A DNA stretch of 64,000 nucleotides from an uncultured Clostridia bacterium (GCA_945919375.1 CAMEJD010000006.1:7406-71405); one strand, 5' to 3'; positions 14,303-63,854 are shown, counted from the first letter of the stretch. Notes: a model not told the origin generated them from the sequence alone. Program-made: numbers and translations.

Positions 14303-14740
14303 TGTACAAAAATTTGGCAGTAAACGAAGTATTGCGTAGTTTTTATTAAAAACCAGTAATGTGTTGTACCAAAATTTAATAAAAACAAGCAAGACGAGGC
14401 TCATCGTCAAAACTCTCGCTTGTACTCATTTTGAATGTCTTACATTCAAAATCTCGGTTCGCACGCTCGGTTTTTCCTTTCCCCAAAAACAACAACTGTT
14501 TTTGGGGTACCCCATATGCGTCCACGCAGGAGTTTGGACTTCCAAATGACTGTGTGGAAAATTTGGCAGTAAACAAAGTATTGCGTAGTTTTTATTAAAA
14601 ACCAGTAATGCGTTGTACCAAAATTTAATAAAAACAAGCAAGACGAGGCTCGACAAATTTTCAACGCAGGAGTTTGGTTTTCCAAATGACTGTGTGGAAA
14701 ATTTGGCAGTAAACAAAGTATTGCGCAGTTTTTATTAAAT
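14303..14740. repeat. Tandem array (2 full units plus 1 partial) of a ~140-bp structured repeat; the first unit carries a ~120-bp insert module (14403-14523)
   Basis: AATTTGGCAGTAAAC[G/A]AAGTATTGCG[T/C]AGTTTTTATTAAA recurs at 14311, 14561 and 14701; in the first two copies the unit continues ...AACCAGTAATG[T/C]GTTGTACCAAAATTTAATAAAAACAAGCAAGACGAGGCTC. Hairpin cores ACGCAGGAGTTTGG-NNNN-CCAAATGACTGTGTGGAAAATTTGG are at 14524-14566 and 14664-14706. The short ORFs the track reports here are repeat artefacts. Confidence 0.85.
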
Positions 14741-14921
14741 TTTGCTTGGTGGTGGTAAACTCAAATACCCCCTTATATATAAAATAACTCTTTTCATAAT
14801 CTCTCTTAAATTATTTACCTGCAATTCTACCACATAAATGCAGATTATGTCAAGAGTTGTATTTTACTTTACAAAAGTACTAAAAACAAGTAAACTATTA
14901 TGATTACAAATAGGAGAAGAA

Positions 14922-16999: not shown

Positions 17000-17215
17000 T
17001 GATTTATTTATGCTGTGAGATTTTCTCCAAAGCAAAACTTCGGGGTCGGCAGTCGGAATAACTTTTCACAGGGATACCCCAAAAAACAGTTGTGTTTTTT
17101 TTTGGGGGGGAAAAAAAACGAGTATGCAAACCGAGATTTTGGATTCACATCATTCAAAATGAGTACAAGCGAACGCTTTTACACCATTTCAAGTGTGACA
17201 TCTTTGAACTATTAG
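17000..17215. repeat. Inverted, diverged copy of the insert module seen at 14403-14523, plus a degenerate hairpin remnant
   Basis: 17071-17181 aligns with the reverse complement of 14403-14520, about three-quarters identical by eye. Shared blocks are TACCCCAAAAACAGTTGT, AACCGAGATTTTG and CATTCAAAATGAGTACAAGCGA. Both hairpins are retained, and there is a T9-G7-A8 tract at 17095-17118. Confidence 0.75.
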
Positions 17216-37681: not shown

Positions 37682-37764
37682 GCGGATGTGGTGAAATTGG
37701 CAGACACGCAAGACTTAGGATCTTGTTCGAAAGAGTGGGGGTTCAAGTCCCTTCATCCGCACCA
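37682..37764 (+). tRNA. tRNA-Leu (anticodon UAG), encoded CCA
   Basis: Acceptor GCGGATG/CATCCGC, anticodon stem CAAGA/TCTTG with loop CTTAGGA, a long variable arm, TTCAAGT T-loop and terminal ACCA. Confidence 0.9.
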
Positions 37765-37770
37765 AACACC

Positions 37771-37795
37771 AAAAAGTCCAAAGGACTTTTTTTCA
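37771..37795 (+). terminator. Hairpin plus T-run after tRNA-Leu
   Basis: AAAAAGTCC-AAA-GGACTTTTTTT. Confidence 0.55.
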
Positions 37796-37824
37796 TTAGT
37801 AAATTATTCCTAAACAATTAATAT

Positions 37825-37899
37825 TGGGGTATCGCCAAGTGGTAAGGCATTGGACTCTGACTCCAACATCCGTAGGTTCGAATCCTACTACCCCAGCCA
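37825..37899 (+). tRNA. tRNA-Gln (anticodon CUG), encoded CCA
   Basis: TGGGGTATCGCCAAGTGGTAAGGCA start is typical of tRNA-Gln. Anticodon stem TTGGA/TCCAA with loop CTCTGAC, TTCGAAT T-loop, 3' TACCCCAGCCA. Confidence 0.9.
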
Positions 37900-37907
37900 T
37901 TAGAAAA

Positions 37908-37980
37908 AACATCGCCCTTTTAATTCGATTTGAAATTGTCATTTCAAATCTTCATTTTTGGGGCGTGTTTTTTCTTCTTA
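37908..37980 (+). repeat. Copy 1 of a ~73-bp direct repeat with a terminator-like hairpin GATTTGAAAT-TGTC-ATTTCAAATC followed by TTCATTTTT
   Basis: 69/73 identical to 38059-38131. It starts 8 nt after tRNA-Gln(CUG). Confidence 0.8.
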
Positions 37981-38058
37981 CCCACCATGCGAAAACTCCG
38001 CTTCGCTAAGGAGTTTTGTGGGTACTTCCCTTCGGAGTATGTCTTTGCTTTCTTATTG

Positions 38059-38131
38059 AACATCGCCCTTTTAATTCGATTTGAAATTATCATTTCAAAT
38101 CTTCATTTTTGGGACGTGTTGTTTCTTTTTA
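38059..38131 (+). repeat. Copy 2 of the ~73-bp direct repeat
   Basis: AACATCGCCCTTTTAATTCGATTTGAAATTATCATTTCAAATCTTCATTTTTGGGACGTG..., 151 bp downstream of copy 1. Confidence 0.8.
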
Positions 38132-38196
38132 CTTAGCATAAATAACTATCAATTTAAACTTTTTAAAAAAATTGTAAAAATATTTTGAAAAATGTC

Positions 38197-38225
38197 TTTA
38201 CATTTTGATTTCAATATTATATAAT
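38197..38225 (+). promoter_or_regulatory. Sigma-A-type promoter TTTACA-N17-TATAAT for tRNA-Gln(UUG)/tRNA-Lys
   Basis: TTTACA at 38197-38202 and TATAAT at 38220-38225, 12 nt before the tRNA 5' end. Confidence 0.6.
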
Positions 38226-38237
38226 ACAAAAGCGTAT

Positions 38238-38312
38238 TGGGGTGTAGCCAAGTGGTAAGGCACGAGACTTTGACTCTCGCATGCGTAGGTTCAAATCCTG
38301 CCACCCCAGCCA
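38238..38312 (+). tRNA. tRNA-Gln (anticodon UUG), encoded CCA
   Basis: TGGGGTGTAGCCAAGTGGTAAGGCA; anticodon stem CGAGA/TCTCG with loop CTTTGAC; TTCAAAT T-loop; 3' CACCCCAGCCA. Confidence 0.9.
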
Positions 38313-38428
38313 AATGTGCTTTGCACATCCCAAATGAATTTGTAAGTTCCCCCAATTTATAAATTCATAAATCGATTATGATTTTGACTTATAGGCATTC
38401 GCTTATAGTCAAATCAAACCCCCTTTAT

Positions 38429-38504
38429 GGTTCACTAGCTCAGCCGGTAGAGCACTTGACTTTTAATCAAGGGGTCTCGAGTTCGAATCTCGAGTGAGCC
38501 ACCA
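38429..38504 (+). tRNA. tRNA-Lys (anticodon UUU), encoded CCA
   Basis: Acceptor GGTTCAC/GTGAGCC, D-arm TAGCTCAGCCGGTAGAGCA, anticodon stem CTTGA/TCAAG with loop CTTTTAA, and TTCGAAT T-loop. Confidence 0.9.
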
Positions 38505-45054: not shown

Positions 45055-45101
45055 AAAAACATTTTAACATAAAACAATAAAAATAGCACTAAAAAATAAA
45101 A

Positions 45102-45133
45102 AAATGACTAGATAAACTTATCTAATCATTTTT
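45102..45133. terminator. Orphan bidirectional terminator-like hairpin upstream of the methyltransferase gene
   Basis: AAATGACTAGATA-loop-TATCTAATCATTT (one mismatch) flanked by an A-run and T5. No gene ends next to it on either strand. Confidence 0.5.
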
Positions 45134-45226
45134 ATATATCAAATAATTAATGATTGTATTATGATTGTTTTTATTTGCTTTGATAATGTATAGTTTTTGT
45201 GATATATTGAATACGTAGAGGTTGAC

Positions 45227-46825
45227 ATGAACAGTAATTATAAGTTTAGAATTTTTTATAATTCTATTGACGGATGTAAAAGTGATTCTCGATGGATTTT
45301 AACAATAGAAACAAATCTACTGACTAAACAGCAATTGGACGGAATCTTAAAGAATTATTTTACAATCAATTCTGACATAATTAGTTCTGTAAAAAAGAAT
45401 GTGACAATCCCACAAAATATTCAATTCTTTCAAACATATAAAATTCGCAACATTTTCCAATATTACTGCGAAGATATTAATATTGGAGATAATGCAATTT
45501 TATTATTTCAAAACTATGAAATCCTCAATGAAAAATCATCTATATCCCAATATATAAACCATTTTATTAATGGCTTGCAAACAATAGAAAAAAATATTTT
45601 TCTGTTTAAAGTTATAAGTTCAAAAAGTTTATTAAGAAAACTAGCAGGGTCTTTATGCTTTAGAATTGAAGACTTAAATAAAATTGATATTTTGAGTTTT
45701 AAACTAGATGAAATAATCACTATACAAAATTCATTAAAAAACATAGATTTTCGAAAACCACTTGACTATTTAAGTGATTTAGATTCCGTATTACAAGACA
45801 ATTACCCTTACCTTCATTCAAAGTATAATTTTAAAAAAAACATAGTGTTGTCCAACGAAGATGCAGCACAAATTTATAATATCCCAGCATCAAAATATAA
45901 GTATTTATTATATAGAGATATAAGTAAATTCCGCAGGTTTTTATATTCAAATAATTTACATTCACAAAAAACAAAGAAAAAAATAGATATTTATTCTTCA
46001 CTTTTAAAAGTCCTATTTTATTCTGACAATGATTATATCATTAGCAATTACGAACTCAATTCGTTTTATAATAACGCATATAAAAGCTTCATATTTGATA
46101 TTTATATAAGACAAATTAATATTCCTAATAGTCTTCATAATTGTAAATATATTGATCTCAGAGGAGACTTATATGAGATTATTGAAAATTTACCTACTGT
46201 AGTAAATGTGAAAAAACTTAATAATCTTATGATTATATGGGAAAAAAGATTAAATGGTTTCATCCCATATATTAAATTTAAATCATTTATATCTACACCT
46301 TATCATAAATATGGTGAAACTTATGCTCTTTCTCAAATTGGTGAAAATAAGGGGTTCATTAATGGCAAGATTGTTACAGATAATGAAATCTATCAACATA
46401 TCTTTAGGTGCATATTCCCAAATGGTGCAAACATTACAAATAAAGATAACATTAAAAAATTAAAATATATTGCAGATAGAAAGTATGGACTAACAAATAA
46501 TGTAGAATCTAATGCTGTAATTAAAAAGATTTTATCTAATCCAAAGTTCATACAAATAGATAAGAATATTTATAAATATTACAATGATACACTAATTGAT
46601 ATCAATTTATATAACGAATTATATAAGTATATCAAAACACATAAGTATGTTGAATGGAATGATTTATTTAATAAGTTTAGCAAAATATTAAAAACTAAAA
46701 TGATTATAACTCCTACAATGCTTCATAGTTGTTTACAACAAGTTTACAATAGTAATAGCCTCAATAATAAAAGACGAATAATTGTATTTACAAAAGTTGC
46801 TGCTTATGTTAGACGCCATTATTAG
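45227..46825 (+). CDS. Hypothetical N/I/K/Y-rich protein, no recognisable domain
   Basis: 532-aa ORF that is visibly more AT-rich than its neighbours. It is the only plus-strand gene within a ~18-kb run of minus-strand genes. Confidence 0.5.
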   Translation: MNSNYKFRIFYNSIDGCKSDSRWILTIETNLLTKQQLDGILKNYFTINSDIISSVKKNVTIPQNIQFFQTYKIRNIFQYYCEDINIGDNAILLFQNYEILNEKSSISQYINHFINGLQTIEKNIFLFKVISSKSLLRKLAGSLCFRIEDLNKIDILSFKLDEIITIQNSLKNIDFRKPLDYLSDLDSVLQDNYPYLHSKYNFKKNIVLSNEDAAQIYNIPASKYKYLLYRDISKFRRFLYSNNLHSQKTKKKIDIYSSLLKVLFYSDNDYIISNYELNSFYNNAYKSFIFDIYIRQINIPNSLHNCKYIDLRGDLYEIIENLPTVVNVKKLNNLMIIWEKRLNGFIPYIKFKSFISTPYHKYGETYALSQIGENKGFINGKIVTDNEIYQHIFRCIFPNGANITNKDNIKKLKYIADRKYGLTNNVESNAVIKKILSNPKFIQIDKNIYKYYNDTLIDINLYNELYKYIKTHKYVEWNDLFNKFSKILKTKMIITPTMLHSCLQQVYNSNSLNNKRRIIVFTKVAAYVRRHY

Positions 46826-46899
46826 AAAATTTAGGTTCATACTAGCTTTTTACAGATTTGATATTTACATTTTTAAAATGTTCAATGCAAAATTAACCA

Positions 46900-47325
46900 C
46901 AAGTGCAAGGCTCGACAAAATCGCCACCGCAGGAGTTTGTAAATCAAAAATTAAAAAAATGGCCCGAAATTCAAGGCTCGCTTTTGGCATTATTTGGTTT
47001 GTTTAACTAAAAAAATGCAAAATTAGGAGACGTATTTGAGGCTCGCATAATAAATGCCGGCAGGAGTTTGCTTACGCAAATAGGGCTTCGCCCTTTTAGT
47101 CGGCGTCGCATATTTAAGTTTATGCAAGCATGTCTTCTATATGCTCCTTGTAATGACTGTGGCATTTTGTTATGCAAAAACTAAAAGTTTGCTTAACATA
47201 AAAATTAAAAAAATAGCCCGAAATTCAAGGCTCGCTTGGTATTTACACGCAGGAGTTTGCTAACGCAAATGACTGTGTGTAAATTGCCAAGCAGAAACAA
47301 AGAAGTTCGGAGCTATTTTTTTAAT
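46900..47325. repeat. Cluster of four units of the structured hairpin repeat family (two intact, two degenerate)
   Basis: A/GAGGCTCG at 46907, 46973, 47038 and 47227. CGCAGGAGTTTG-type cores at 46927-46939, 47059-47080 and 47248-47279. AAAAATTAAAAAAAT[G/A]GCCCGAAATTCAAGGCTCG is repeated at 46946-46980 and 47200-47234. Confidence 0.85.
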
Positions 47326-47328
47326 TTT

Positions 47329-47640
47329 TTAGCCTTGGTAAATAATAAGACTAACAAAATATAATACTATACATATTGCCATAATTGATACACAAGCAAT
47401 AGTTGCACGAGAAAGTTTTACATTTCTTGATTCACCTTTGTTTTGTGCATAATAACTTTCTTGACTTGAACCAGTTAATGCACTTTGTCCATCATCGTTG
47501 GCATTCGATTGCAAAAGTGTTGTAACAATCATAATAACTGCACAAATAGCTATCATACAAACAAGAACTATTCTTATGATTGGGAATGAACTTGTTACCC
47601 AATATGGCATTGATGATTCCAATAATAAATTTTGTTTCAT
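47329..47640 (-). CDS. secG: Preprotein translocase subunit SecG (probable)
   Basis: Two TM segments separated by a G/S/Q-rich loop. IMIVTTLLQS resembles the SecG VLLQ motif, followed by K..R...L.R.T..... 103 aa, with GGAG 5 nt before the ATG. Confidence 0.55.
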   Translation of the reverse strand: MKQNLLLESSMPYWVTSSFPIIRIVLVCMIAICAVIMIVTTLLQSNANDDGQSALTGSSQESYYAQNKGESRNVKLSRATIACVSIMAICIVLYFVSLIIYQG

Positions 47641-63777: not shown

Positions 63778-63854
63778 TGGAATGTAGCTCAGCCGGTTAG
63801 AGCACCACCCTGATAAGGTGGGGGTCGGTGGTTCGAGTCCACTCATTCCAACCA
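63778..63854 (+). tRNA. tRNA-Ile (anticodon GAU), encoded CCA
   Basis: Acceptor TGGAATG/CATTCCA, anticodon stem CCACC/GGTGG with loop CTGATAA, TTCGAGT T-loop and terminal ACCA. Confidence 0.85.

Follow-up and report, generated by a model that had tools for sequence, protein, structure and literature searches.

REP and REPIN elements are mobilized by RAYT (TnpA_REP) transposases. REPs are 20-40 nt long with conserved stems, REPINs are inverted REP doublets, and REP mobilization proceeds without duplication of the target. In integron attC sites it is structure, not sequence, that is conserved; the strand that functions lies antisense to the upstream ORF, the site overlaps the stop codon, and the apex varies. 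REPs also serve as targets for insertion sequences (PMC1525189). SPRITE repeats are enriched at the 3' ends of coding sequences and between convergent genes, carry AAAA/TTTT ends and have no known IS partner (PMC3049150). IS1272 inserts into terminator hairpins, and other members of the IS1182 family target palindromes (PMC4923244). Lastly, long covarying hairpins present in many phyla have been classed as candidate mobile or repeat sequences (PMC11109978).

Here we analyze a cluster of four hairpin units (46889-47329), all from one repeat family and all on the + strand, in a window of 64,000 nucleotides, the whole stretch of DNA that was studied, from an uncultured Clostridia bacterium. Set beside the systems above, the family is probably akin to MITEs, SPRITE/BOX/RUP, ERIC and REP elements: a mobile, non-autonomous hairpin repeat that homes to terminators and whose structured core is unusually conserved. 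The length of its unit, its presence in several phyla and its behavior as a mobile repeat go beyond what the first-pass annotation of the window had described.

Anatomy of the two hairpin clusters

The cluster lies between an orphan ORF of 532 amino acids (45227-46825, + strand; no Pfam family) and secG (47329-47640, − strand; Pfam SecG). The landmark words from which the first-pass annotation had recognized it, together with a first cluster of the same family (14303-14742, + strand), are all present on the + strand where they had been placed and occur above chance. RAGGCTCG was found at 46907, 46973, 47038, 47227 and 14645 (five observed, 0.3 expected), and GCAGGAGTTTG at 46929, 47060, 47249, 14526 and 14666 (five observed, 0.8 expected). 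AAATGACTGTG occurs at 47267, 14544, 14684 and, with one mismatch, at 47151.

Unit D (47200-47329, + strand) is an intact element of 130 nt that ends at the secG stop codon and scores 83.5 bits at 47218-47309 with a covariance model of the family that was built from relatives. Its outer helix P1 (47200-47226 / 47302-47329) carries a 5' A-run and a 3' T-run. Inside P1 are J5' AAGGCTCG (47227-47234), P2 (47235-47247 / 47278-47291), J3' CAGAAACAAA (47292-47301) and the core, C-GCAG-GA-GTTTGC-TAAC-GCAAAT-GA-CTG-TG (47248-47277). Within the outer helix 47200-47217 is perfectly complementary to 47312-47329, and CCGAAATTC is paired with GAAGTTCGG. The full unit is therefore 47200-47329, about twice as long as the hairpin initially described, from which P1 had been missed. 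The stop codon of secG (47329-47331) overlaps the final base of the P1 3' arm and T-run. The full 130-nt rod folds at −64 kcal/mol (z = −11.2), compared to −54.7 for the reverse strand, and the inner hairpin alone at −38.5 kcal/mol on the + strand (z = −8.3) and −27.3 on the − strand.

Unit C (47011-47199, + strand) is a copy interrupted by an insertion and without the 3' arm of P1, and it scores 16.8 bits with the model, in a match that starts at 47030. Its 5' side consists of a P1 5' arm remnant (47011-47037), J5' GAGGCTCG (47038-47045) and the P2 5' arm (47046-47058). The apex reads GGCAGGAGTTTGC-TTAC-GCAAAT (47059-47081) and continues past the insert with AATGACTGTG (47152-47161), followed by the P2 3' arm (47162-47175) and a J3' remnant, CAAAAAC, from 47176. 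The insert itself (47082-47151, no strand assigned) is 70 nt of foreign sequence in the 3' side of P3, the apical stem. It is flanked by a 3-bp repeat (AAT..AAT), contains three small hairpins, one of them AGGGC-TTC-GCCCT, is single copy in the window, and elsewhere occurs only in orthologous copies of the same species. Because strains L120 and L121 carry unit C uninterrupted (GCAAATGACTG), this is a true insertion, as had been proposed, with coordinates corrected from 47081-47150. The allele in these two strains also has a complete outer helix, scores 75.3 bits and abuts secG.

The two remaining units had been called degenerate, and both are indeed 5' fragments. Unit A (46889-46945, + strand) is cut off and then joined to unit B; it comprises J5' AAGGCTCG (46907-46914), the P2 5' arm ACAAAATCGCCAC (46915-46927) and the 5' half of the core, CGCAGGAGTTTG (46928-46939), and matches the covariance model weakly (46898-46939, 9 bits). 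Unit B (46946-47010, + strand) has a P1 5' arm, AAAAATTAAAAAAATGGCCCGAAATTC, that is 97% identical to the arm of unit D and forms an inverted repeat with 47312-47329. J5' AAGGCTCG is at 46973-46980, and the remainder of unit B is decayed, without a core. The block 46884-46983 is reshuffled as one piece among strains.

In the first cluster there is one intact unit and one disrupted copy. The intact unit matches the model at 14636-14725 with 85.5 bits, and its full hairpin spans approximately 14621-14742; the model search suggested in the first-pass annotation matched both clusters, each with a high-scoring intact copy. In the disrupted copy (14496-14585, 39.8 bits) the 5' half has been displaced by a nested second repeat at 14390-14520. 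The pairs of arms previously quoted, CTTGGTATTTACA / TGTAAATTGCCAAG and CATAATAAATGCC / GGCATTTTGTTATG, were read from the sequence exactly so, both helices having a T.G pair at the sixth position and then a bulged T. The apical change between TTTGC/GCAAA and TTTGG/CCAAA, a G-C to C-G swap, is likewise real.

The second small repeat family is found in either orientation nested inside members of the hairpin family, most often at the J loop. It is marked by a GGGG[T/A]ACCCC palindrome, a CCCCAAAAA..TTTTTGGGG hairpin, GGGGARAGGAAAA..CGAGCG and ..TTTGACGA. Besides 14390-14520 it occupies approximately 17151-17215 in the window, on the opposite strand by the 3' end of greA, and it is also present in L003/L094/L115, L021 and L105.

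Architecture, covariation and strand

Each unit is an imperfect palindrome, and all copies share a rod that consists of P1, an internal loop, P2, a tandem G.A loop, P3 and a variable loop. P1 is long and variable, and P2 is 13-15 bp and variable. The 5' strand of the internal loop reads RAGGC(UCG) and its 3' strand (CAG)WAAC(G)MAG. The tandem G.A loop, GCAG-GA-G / U-GA-CUG(U), is symmetric and closed by conserved G.U pairs, and a purine-purine mismatch recurs three pairs beneath the apical loop. The loops are kept in sequence, and the helices are maintained by compensatory change.

To quantify this, covariation was scored in 47 non-redundant copies with 500 shuffles and slid partners as controls. 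Double changes were found in 18 of the 28 pairs, 92.6% of cells were paired (68.9% in the shuffles), and 332 cells were changed on both sides (109 in the shuffles). The covariation score was 0.586 compared to 0.156 after shuffling, a level that none of the 500 shuffles reached, and the slid controls gave 0.09-0.15. All three helices covary strongly. P3 covariation is also found in copies detected by the model only, with pairs such as GUGAAC/GUUCAU and GCGUAC/GUACGU. In this alignment, with many more copies than the three first described, the proposal in the first-pass annotation that selection acts on structure rather than on sequence is strongly borne out. As an account of the element the proposal is partly supported, being incomplete: the element also behaves as mobile repeat DNA.

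Folding on both strands, which had been suggested as a check, favored the + strand in 121 of 125 copies (means of −52.3 kcal/mol on the + and −40.6 kcal/mol on the − strand), a preference that base composition fails to explain. Isolated A.C mismatches outside the core number 9 in the + folds and 64 in the − folds, indicating that the wobble pairs belong to the + strand. Since the + strand folds better and carries the wobble pairs, the selected fold is that of one strand of + polarity, as either RNA or single-stranded DNA.

The core of every copy (e.g. 47250-47272) contains AGGAG … AUG, a Shine-Dalgarno/start-like pair of words placed opposite each other in the hairpin, and the reverse complement of the core contains CUCCU. 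A coding role for AGGAG … AUG was rejected, as the downstream frame and length vary (e.g. MTV-stop in L004). A kink-turn or box C/D-like motif was also considered on account of the tandem G.A pairs (GGAG / UGAC). The loop is a symmetric 2x2 loop, and the kink-turn was rejected because no bulge is present in any of the 47 sequences.

Additionally, units in L067, L102, L015 and L009 are mosaic, sharing P1 with a different P2 or P2 with a different P1. To judge from these sequences, this suggests recombination or gene conversion among members of the family.

Distribution, genomic position and mobility

A scan of the collection with an exact pattern, using one genome per species, returned at least 116 loci. 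The covariance model, applied to the first 100 of these, gave 133 matches. Among the matches listed, most loci are in gut Clostridia (Christensenellales-like MAGs), and further true members are found in Bacteroidaceae, Rikenellaceae and Alistipes (Bacteroidota), one Flavobacteriales isolate, several Gammaproteobacteria and one Spirochaetales MAG. The element is multicopy and often arranged in tandem, with at least 8-9 loci from single MAGs such as CASDQU01 and CANQEP01.

When the window and nine diverse loci were searched against Rfam 15 at gathering thresholds, only tRNAs passed; five tRNA genes (37682-38501 and 63778-63851) are the only Rfam matches of the window. A permissive scan of 46700-47450 yielded only sub-threshold miRNA or snoRNA noise, and literature searches with sequence words and with terminator and MITE terms found no description of the family. 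In viral contigs the strict pattern gave two matches, which is the chance level. The relaxed pattern gave 120 loci, and the covariance model matched none of the first 100. Searches for the element in PLSDB and INPHARED returned no matches. In view of the strict pattern, the first 100 relaxed-pattern loci and the two databases, a phage or plasmid origin was rejected.

Copies lie almost always in the 3' regions of genes. In 78 of 90 cases the next gene downstream is encoded on the other strand, and the orientation of the upstream gene is random. In unambiguous contexts, copies antisense to the preceding gene outnumber sense copies by 29 to 5, and divergent promoter regions are avoided (3 cases). 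The stop codon of the convergent gene falls 30-59 nt past the core in 42 loci, that is, at the end of the P1 3' arm, and the arrangement of unit D and secG matches the geometry of these 42 other loci. The abutting genes are housekeeping genes (lysS, rpsG, greA, nusG, rpoZ, serS, fba and secG). Within 4 kb on either side of the copies no conserved protein partner or recurrent transposase family was found; the only recurring neighbors are housekeeping genes in convergent position.

GC skew is negative across the whole window, and most genes are on the − strand. Since the skew is negative throughout, the + strand is the lagging strand. A replication-strand (IS200/IS605-like) account of orientation is not supported, as the fold-favored strand is the leading-strand template by GC skew and only the orientation of the downstream gene is biased, not that of the upstream gene.

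On the + strand, unit D has the predicted layout of an intrinsic terminator, a hairpin followed by TTTTTTTAATTTTT. On the − strand a terminator-like hairpin, AGCCTTGAATTTCGGGCT, is predicted with the T-run ATTTTTTT. Thus the gene-sense transcript has its own predicted terminator at the far end of the element. A T-run after P1 is not universal, and several subfamilies (e.g. L017, L069) are without one. This small reverse-strand hairpin, formed by the J5' word and the P1 arm, lies at 47215-47232 (−) and, in the first cluster, at 14635-14652 (−).

Seventeen independent loci of the largest subfamily carry the element between two direct copies, at fixed positions, of a host hairpin of 16-28 bp that differs from locus to locus; an A-run precedes the left copy and a T-run follows the right one. 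From these runs the target is an intrinsic bidirectional terminator, and the target-site duplication equals its whole palindrome. The terminal inverted repeat of this subfamily is perfect over 16-17 bp, TCAGACTGTT[C/G]AAAAAC, and its members have an additional 3' hairpin and a conserved left tail, CAGnnTGTAGACAAATAAAT. No duplication was recognizable around the units of the window or in other subfamilies with an automated boundary search, which stopped at the internal loop. P1 is a long inverted repeat in every copy, and the sequence of the terminal inverted repeat differs among subfamilies. The first-pass annotation had raised the possibility that the element is simply the terminal inverted repeat of a known IS or MITE family. 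No such family was found, although one subfamily does use its outermost helix as a terminal inverted repeat. A further reading, in which the outer helix of the window's subfamily is a split host terminator, was rejected because nearly the same P1 recurs behind rpoZ elsewhere and the same P1 is found within non-homologous flanks.

L067 and L102 carry one unit in non-homologous flanks, and the unit at secG in the window has close relatives behind rpoZ in other species (L049/L064). In sister species with SecG 71-87% identical, secG has no spacer behind it or only a plain terminator: L250 has just the terminator AAAATTAGGCAACCAAATGGTTGTCTTTTTT, and L248 and L252 have no room for an element. A decayed copy (35 bits) is found behind secG in L254/L255 (2374-2464; SecG 74% identical). 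It is in the sense orientation, and thus was inserted independently of the copy in the window.

Strains with 99% identical flanks differ in the order and number of units. Of eight strains examined, six (L122-L126 and the window-like L119) have unit D directly beside secG; in L120 and L121 unit D is absent and only the intact unit C is found by secG. The window has the damaged unit C, plus unit D at the stop codon. In the strains compared at secG, the intact copy is always the gene-adjacent one. A link to strain-variable DNA, which had been suspected, is seen in the content of the spacer, which differs among these strains. In the comparison with L119-L123, the orphan region (45055-46880) has about 27% G+C in the window, and other strains have an unrelated segment of ~490 bp in place of the orphan ORF, with a short ORF of 80 or 146 amino acids called. 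The rumA-like flanking gene is 99% identical across strains. By sequence comparison, the secG-rumA spacer is a strain-level replacement hot spot.

Candidate explanations and known systems

Evidence of mobility comes from the multicopy state of the family, the presence of one unit at non-homologous loci, the empty orthologous sites and the duplicated flanking terminator hairpins. If the family is the mobile, terminator-homing repeat that we favor, the element would be moved by a trans-acting enzyme that recognizes hairpin or cruciform DNA, probably through staggered cuts at both feet of the target hairpin. The nearest precedent for such a mobilizer would be a hairpin-targeting transposase of the IS1182/IS1272 type. 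The conserved loops may then be recognized by the mobilizing enzyme or by an RNA-binding factor. After insertion, the A-run, long hairpin and T-run of the unit would make it the bidirectional terminator of the gene. Arrays would lengthen as new insertions land beside the stop codon and as units recombine with one another, a process that would leave older, truncated copies distal to the gene.

Several observations weigh against this mobile reading. The vicinity of the copies yielded no autonomous element and no transposase. Across subfamilies conservation peaks in the middle of the element and the ends vary, the reverse of ordinary MITEs recognized by a transposase. Hairpin duplications are seen in one subfamily only, and none is recognizable at the units of the window. 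The strand asymmetry points to a single-stranded form, which cut-and-paste movement of double-stranded DNA does not require, and IS1272, the precedent, deletes part of its target hairpin without duplication. Additionally, retention of the element in the rpsG-fusA spacer of six MAGs could mean long vertical retention under functional constraint in place of repeated insertion.

It is conceivable, though we hold it only tentatively, that the family is a pan-bacterial class of structured element whose loops, a tandem G.A loop and a UAA/GAN-like loop, are read in single-stranded form, as RNA or ssDNA, by a conserved machinery, and which inserts by cutting both feet of a terminator hairpin and thereby duplicates it. 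If true, this would be a new mode of target choice and duplication, and the element would possibly be a domesticated terminator or insulator module behind housekeeping genes.

An alternative, clearly less likely than the mobile reading, is that the + strand is a functional RNA (a small RNA, or an antisense-facing terminator or insulator module that binds a conserved protein through the tandem G.A and RAGGC/WAAC loops), with copies arising from duplication and the mobility signatures being secondary. Strong covariation of all helices, loop nucleotides that are invariant across phyla, the clear preference for the + strand fold with its conserved G.U pairs and the T-run after the hairpin all argue for such an RNA. 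So do the G+C content of the element, 41-47% in a host genome of 30%, and the rpsG-fusA spacer, where the element is kept in six MAGs with compensatory changes in its helices. However, structural conservation alone does not prove a cellular RNA gene, because the element has the behavior of a mobile repeat: copies are numerous within a genome, truncated and nested ones included, one unit recurs at unrelated loci, empty orthologous sites exist, and duplication of target hairpins is seen. A search for a promoter upstream of a + strand transcript gave only chance-level matches. The + strand is antisense to the abutting gene, and thus the transcript that is sure to exist is its reverse complement. 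Neither a consistent class of nearby genes nor an Rfam match was found.

It is very unlikely that the element is a folded single-stranded DNA recombination site, like integron attC or CTX attP, that marks the 3' ends of genes and captures or exchanges cargo such as the orphan ORF. Some features are shared with attC: structure is conserved, stems and the apical part vary around conserved loops, and the favored fold is antisense to the adjacent ORF and overlaps its stop codon, like attC bottom strands. Strain-variable ORFs adjoin the array, and DNA folding parameters also allow G.T and tandem G.A pairs. However, the variable ORFs are not bracketed by units. The abutting genes are housekeeping genes (secG, rpoZ, rpsG, lysS, greA and serS), not cassettes, and no integrase or tyrosine recombinase recurs nearby. 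In the window the fold-favored strand is, by GC skew, the leading-strand template and not the strand exposed at forks. Unlike attC, the family has no R or L boxes, integrase or cassette organization, and conservation is in the middle rather than at the ends. The ends are variable and without RYYYAAC/GTTRRRY boxes, and the one AAC that is conserved lies inside the element, without a GTT partner. As R boxes are absent, identity with attC was rejected.

Finally, the idea that these are unrelated intrinsic terminators or chance palindromes sharing short words, plausible in an AT-rich genome where A-run/T-run hairpins are common at gene ends, is refuted by the alignment, the model and the covariation, since motif counts are far above shuffles, E-values reach 1e-20, a 90-nt architecture with invariant loops is common to more than 100 loci, and the first 100 relaxed-pattern matches in viral contigs score nothing with the model.

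The features of the family point towards recognition, by an enzyme or other mechanism, of secondary structure in DNA or RNA and not of sequence. The position at the stop codon, the bias towards antisense orientation and the hairpin duplication bear on the evolution of gene 3' ends and terminators in compact gut genomes. A covariance model of the family would clear unexplained structured intergenic regions and spurious small ORFs from metagenome annotation, and would also flag strain-level rearrangement hot spots such as the secG-rumA spacer.

Among the known systems, the family resembles REPs in being extragenic palindromes at gene 3' ends, multicopy and often clustered, and in a putative action on termination or mRNA stability. 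One subfamily alone has a GTAG-like word in its tail, TGTAGAC, which lies 5' of the hairpin and recalls the GTAG of REPs. Unlike REPs, the family has variable stems and conserved loops, and no RAYT gene or Y1-transposase neighbor was found near the copies. As in MITEs, the units are small (130-190 bp), have no conserved ORF after the core AUG, are present in many copies per genome and have an inverted repeat, P1, at the ends of every copy. The target-site duplication of the 17 loci departs from the usual MITE kind, since the entire host hairpin is copied and its length varies. No related autonomous IS with matching ends was found within 4 kb on either side of the copies, and a search for orphan element ends bracketing a gene gave none. 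The published candidate MRSC-65-2 likewise combines strong covariation in one long hairpin with dozens of copies per genome and a distribution over diverse phyla, and is possibly relevant as DNA rather than RNA. It is defined by a UYCCGG repeat that is absent from the present family, and the words RAGGC, GCAGGAG, UGACUG and WAAC do not occur in the supplement text of PMC11109978.

IS1272 and the IS1182 family share with the present elements the targeting of terminator hairpins without specificity for primary sequence, and they give the best precedent for enzymatic reading of secondary structure in DNA. IS1272 differs in that it cuts blunt, inserts in both orientations and deletes part of the hairpin, where insertion of the present element duplicates all of it. 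The neighborhood of the copies contained no IS1182-type transposase. SPRITE is likewise a small (<200 bp), multicopy, terminator-like hairpin repeat with A-run/T-run ends, located close to CDS 3' ends and between convergent genes; in both, repeats cluster and nest and no IS partner has been identified. However, SPRITE is sequence-defined and restricted to pneumococcus and S. mitis, whereas the present family extends over several phyla, is richer in G+C than its host, combines invariant internal loops with covarying helices and, in one subfamily, duplicates a whole terminator hairpin. Small interspersed hairpin repeats are usually lineage-restricted and sequence-defined; what is unusual here is a family that spans Clostridia, Bacteroidota, Gammaproteobacteria and Spirochaetales, has covariation of the strength seen in structured RNAs and is absent from Rfam. 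The family adds to the small interspersed hairpin repeats, and a structured core conserved across phyla is the feature that distinguishes it.
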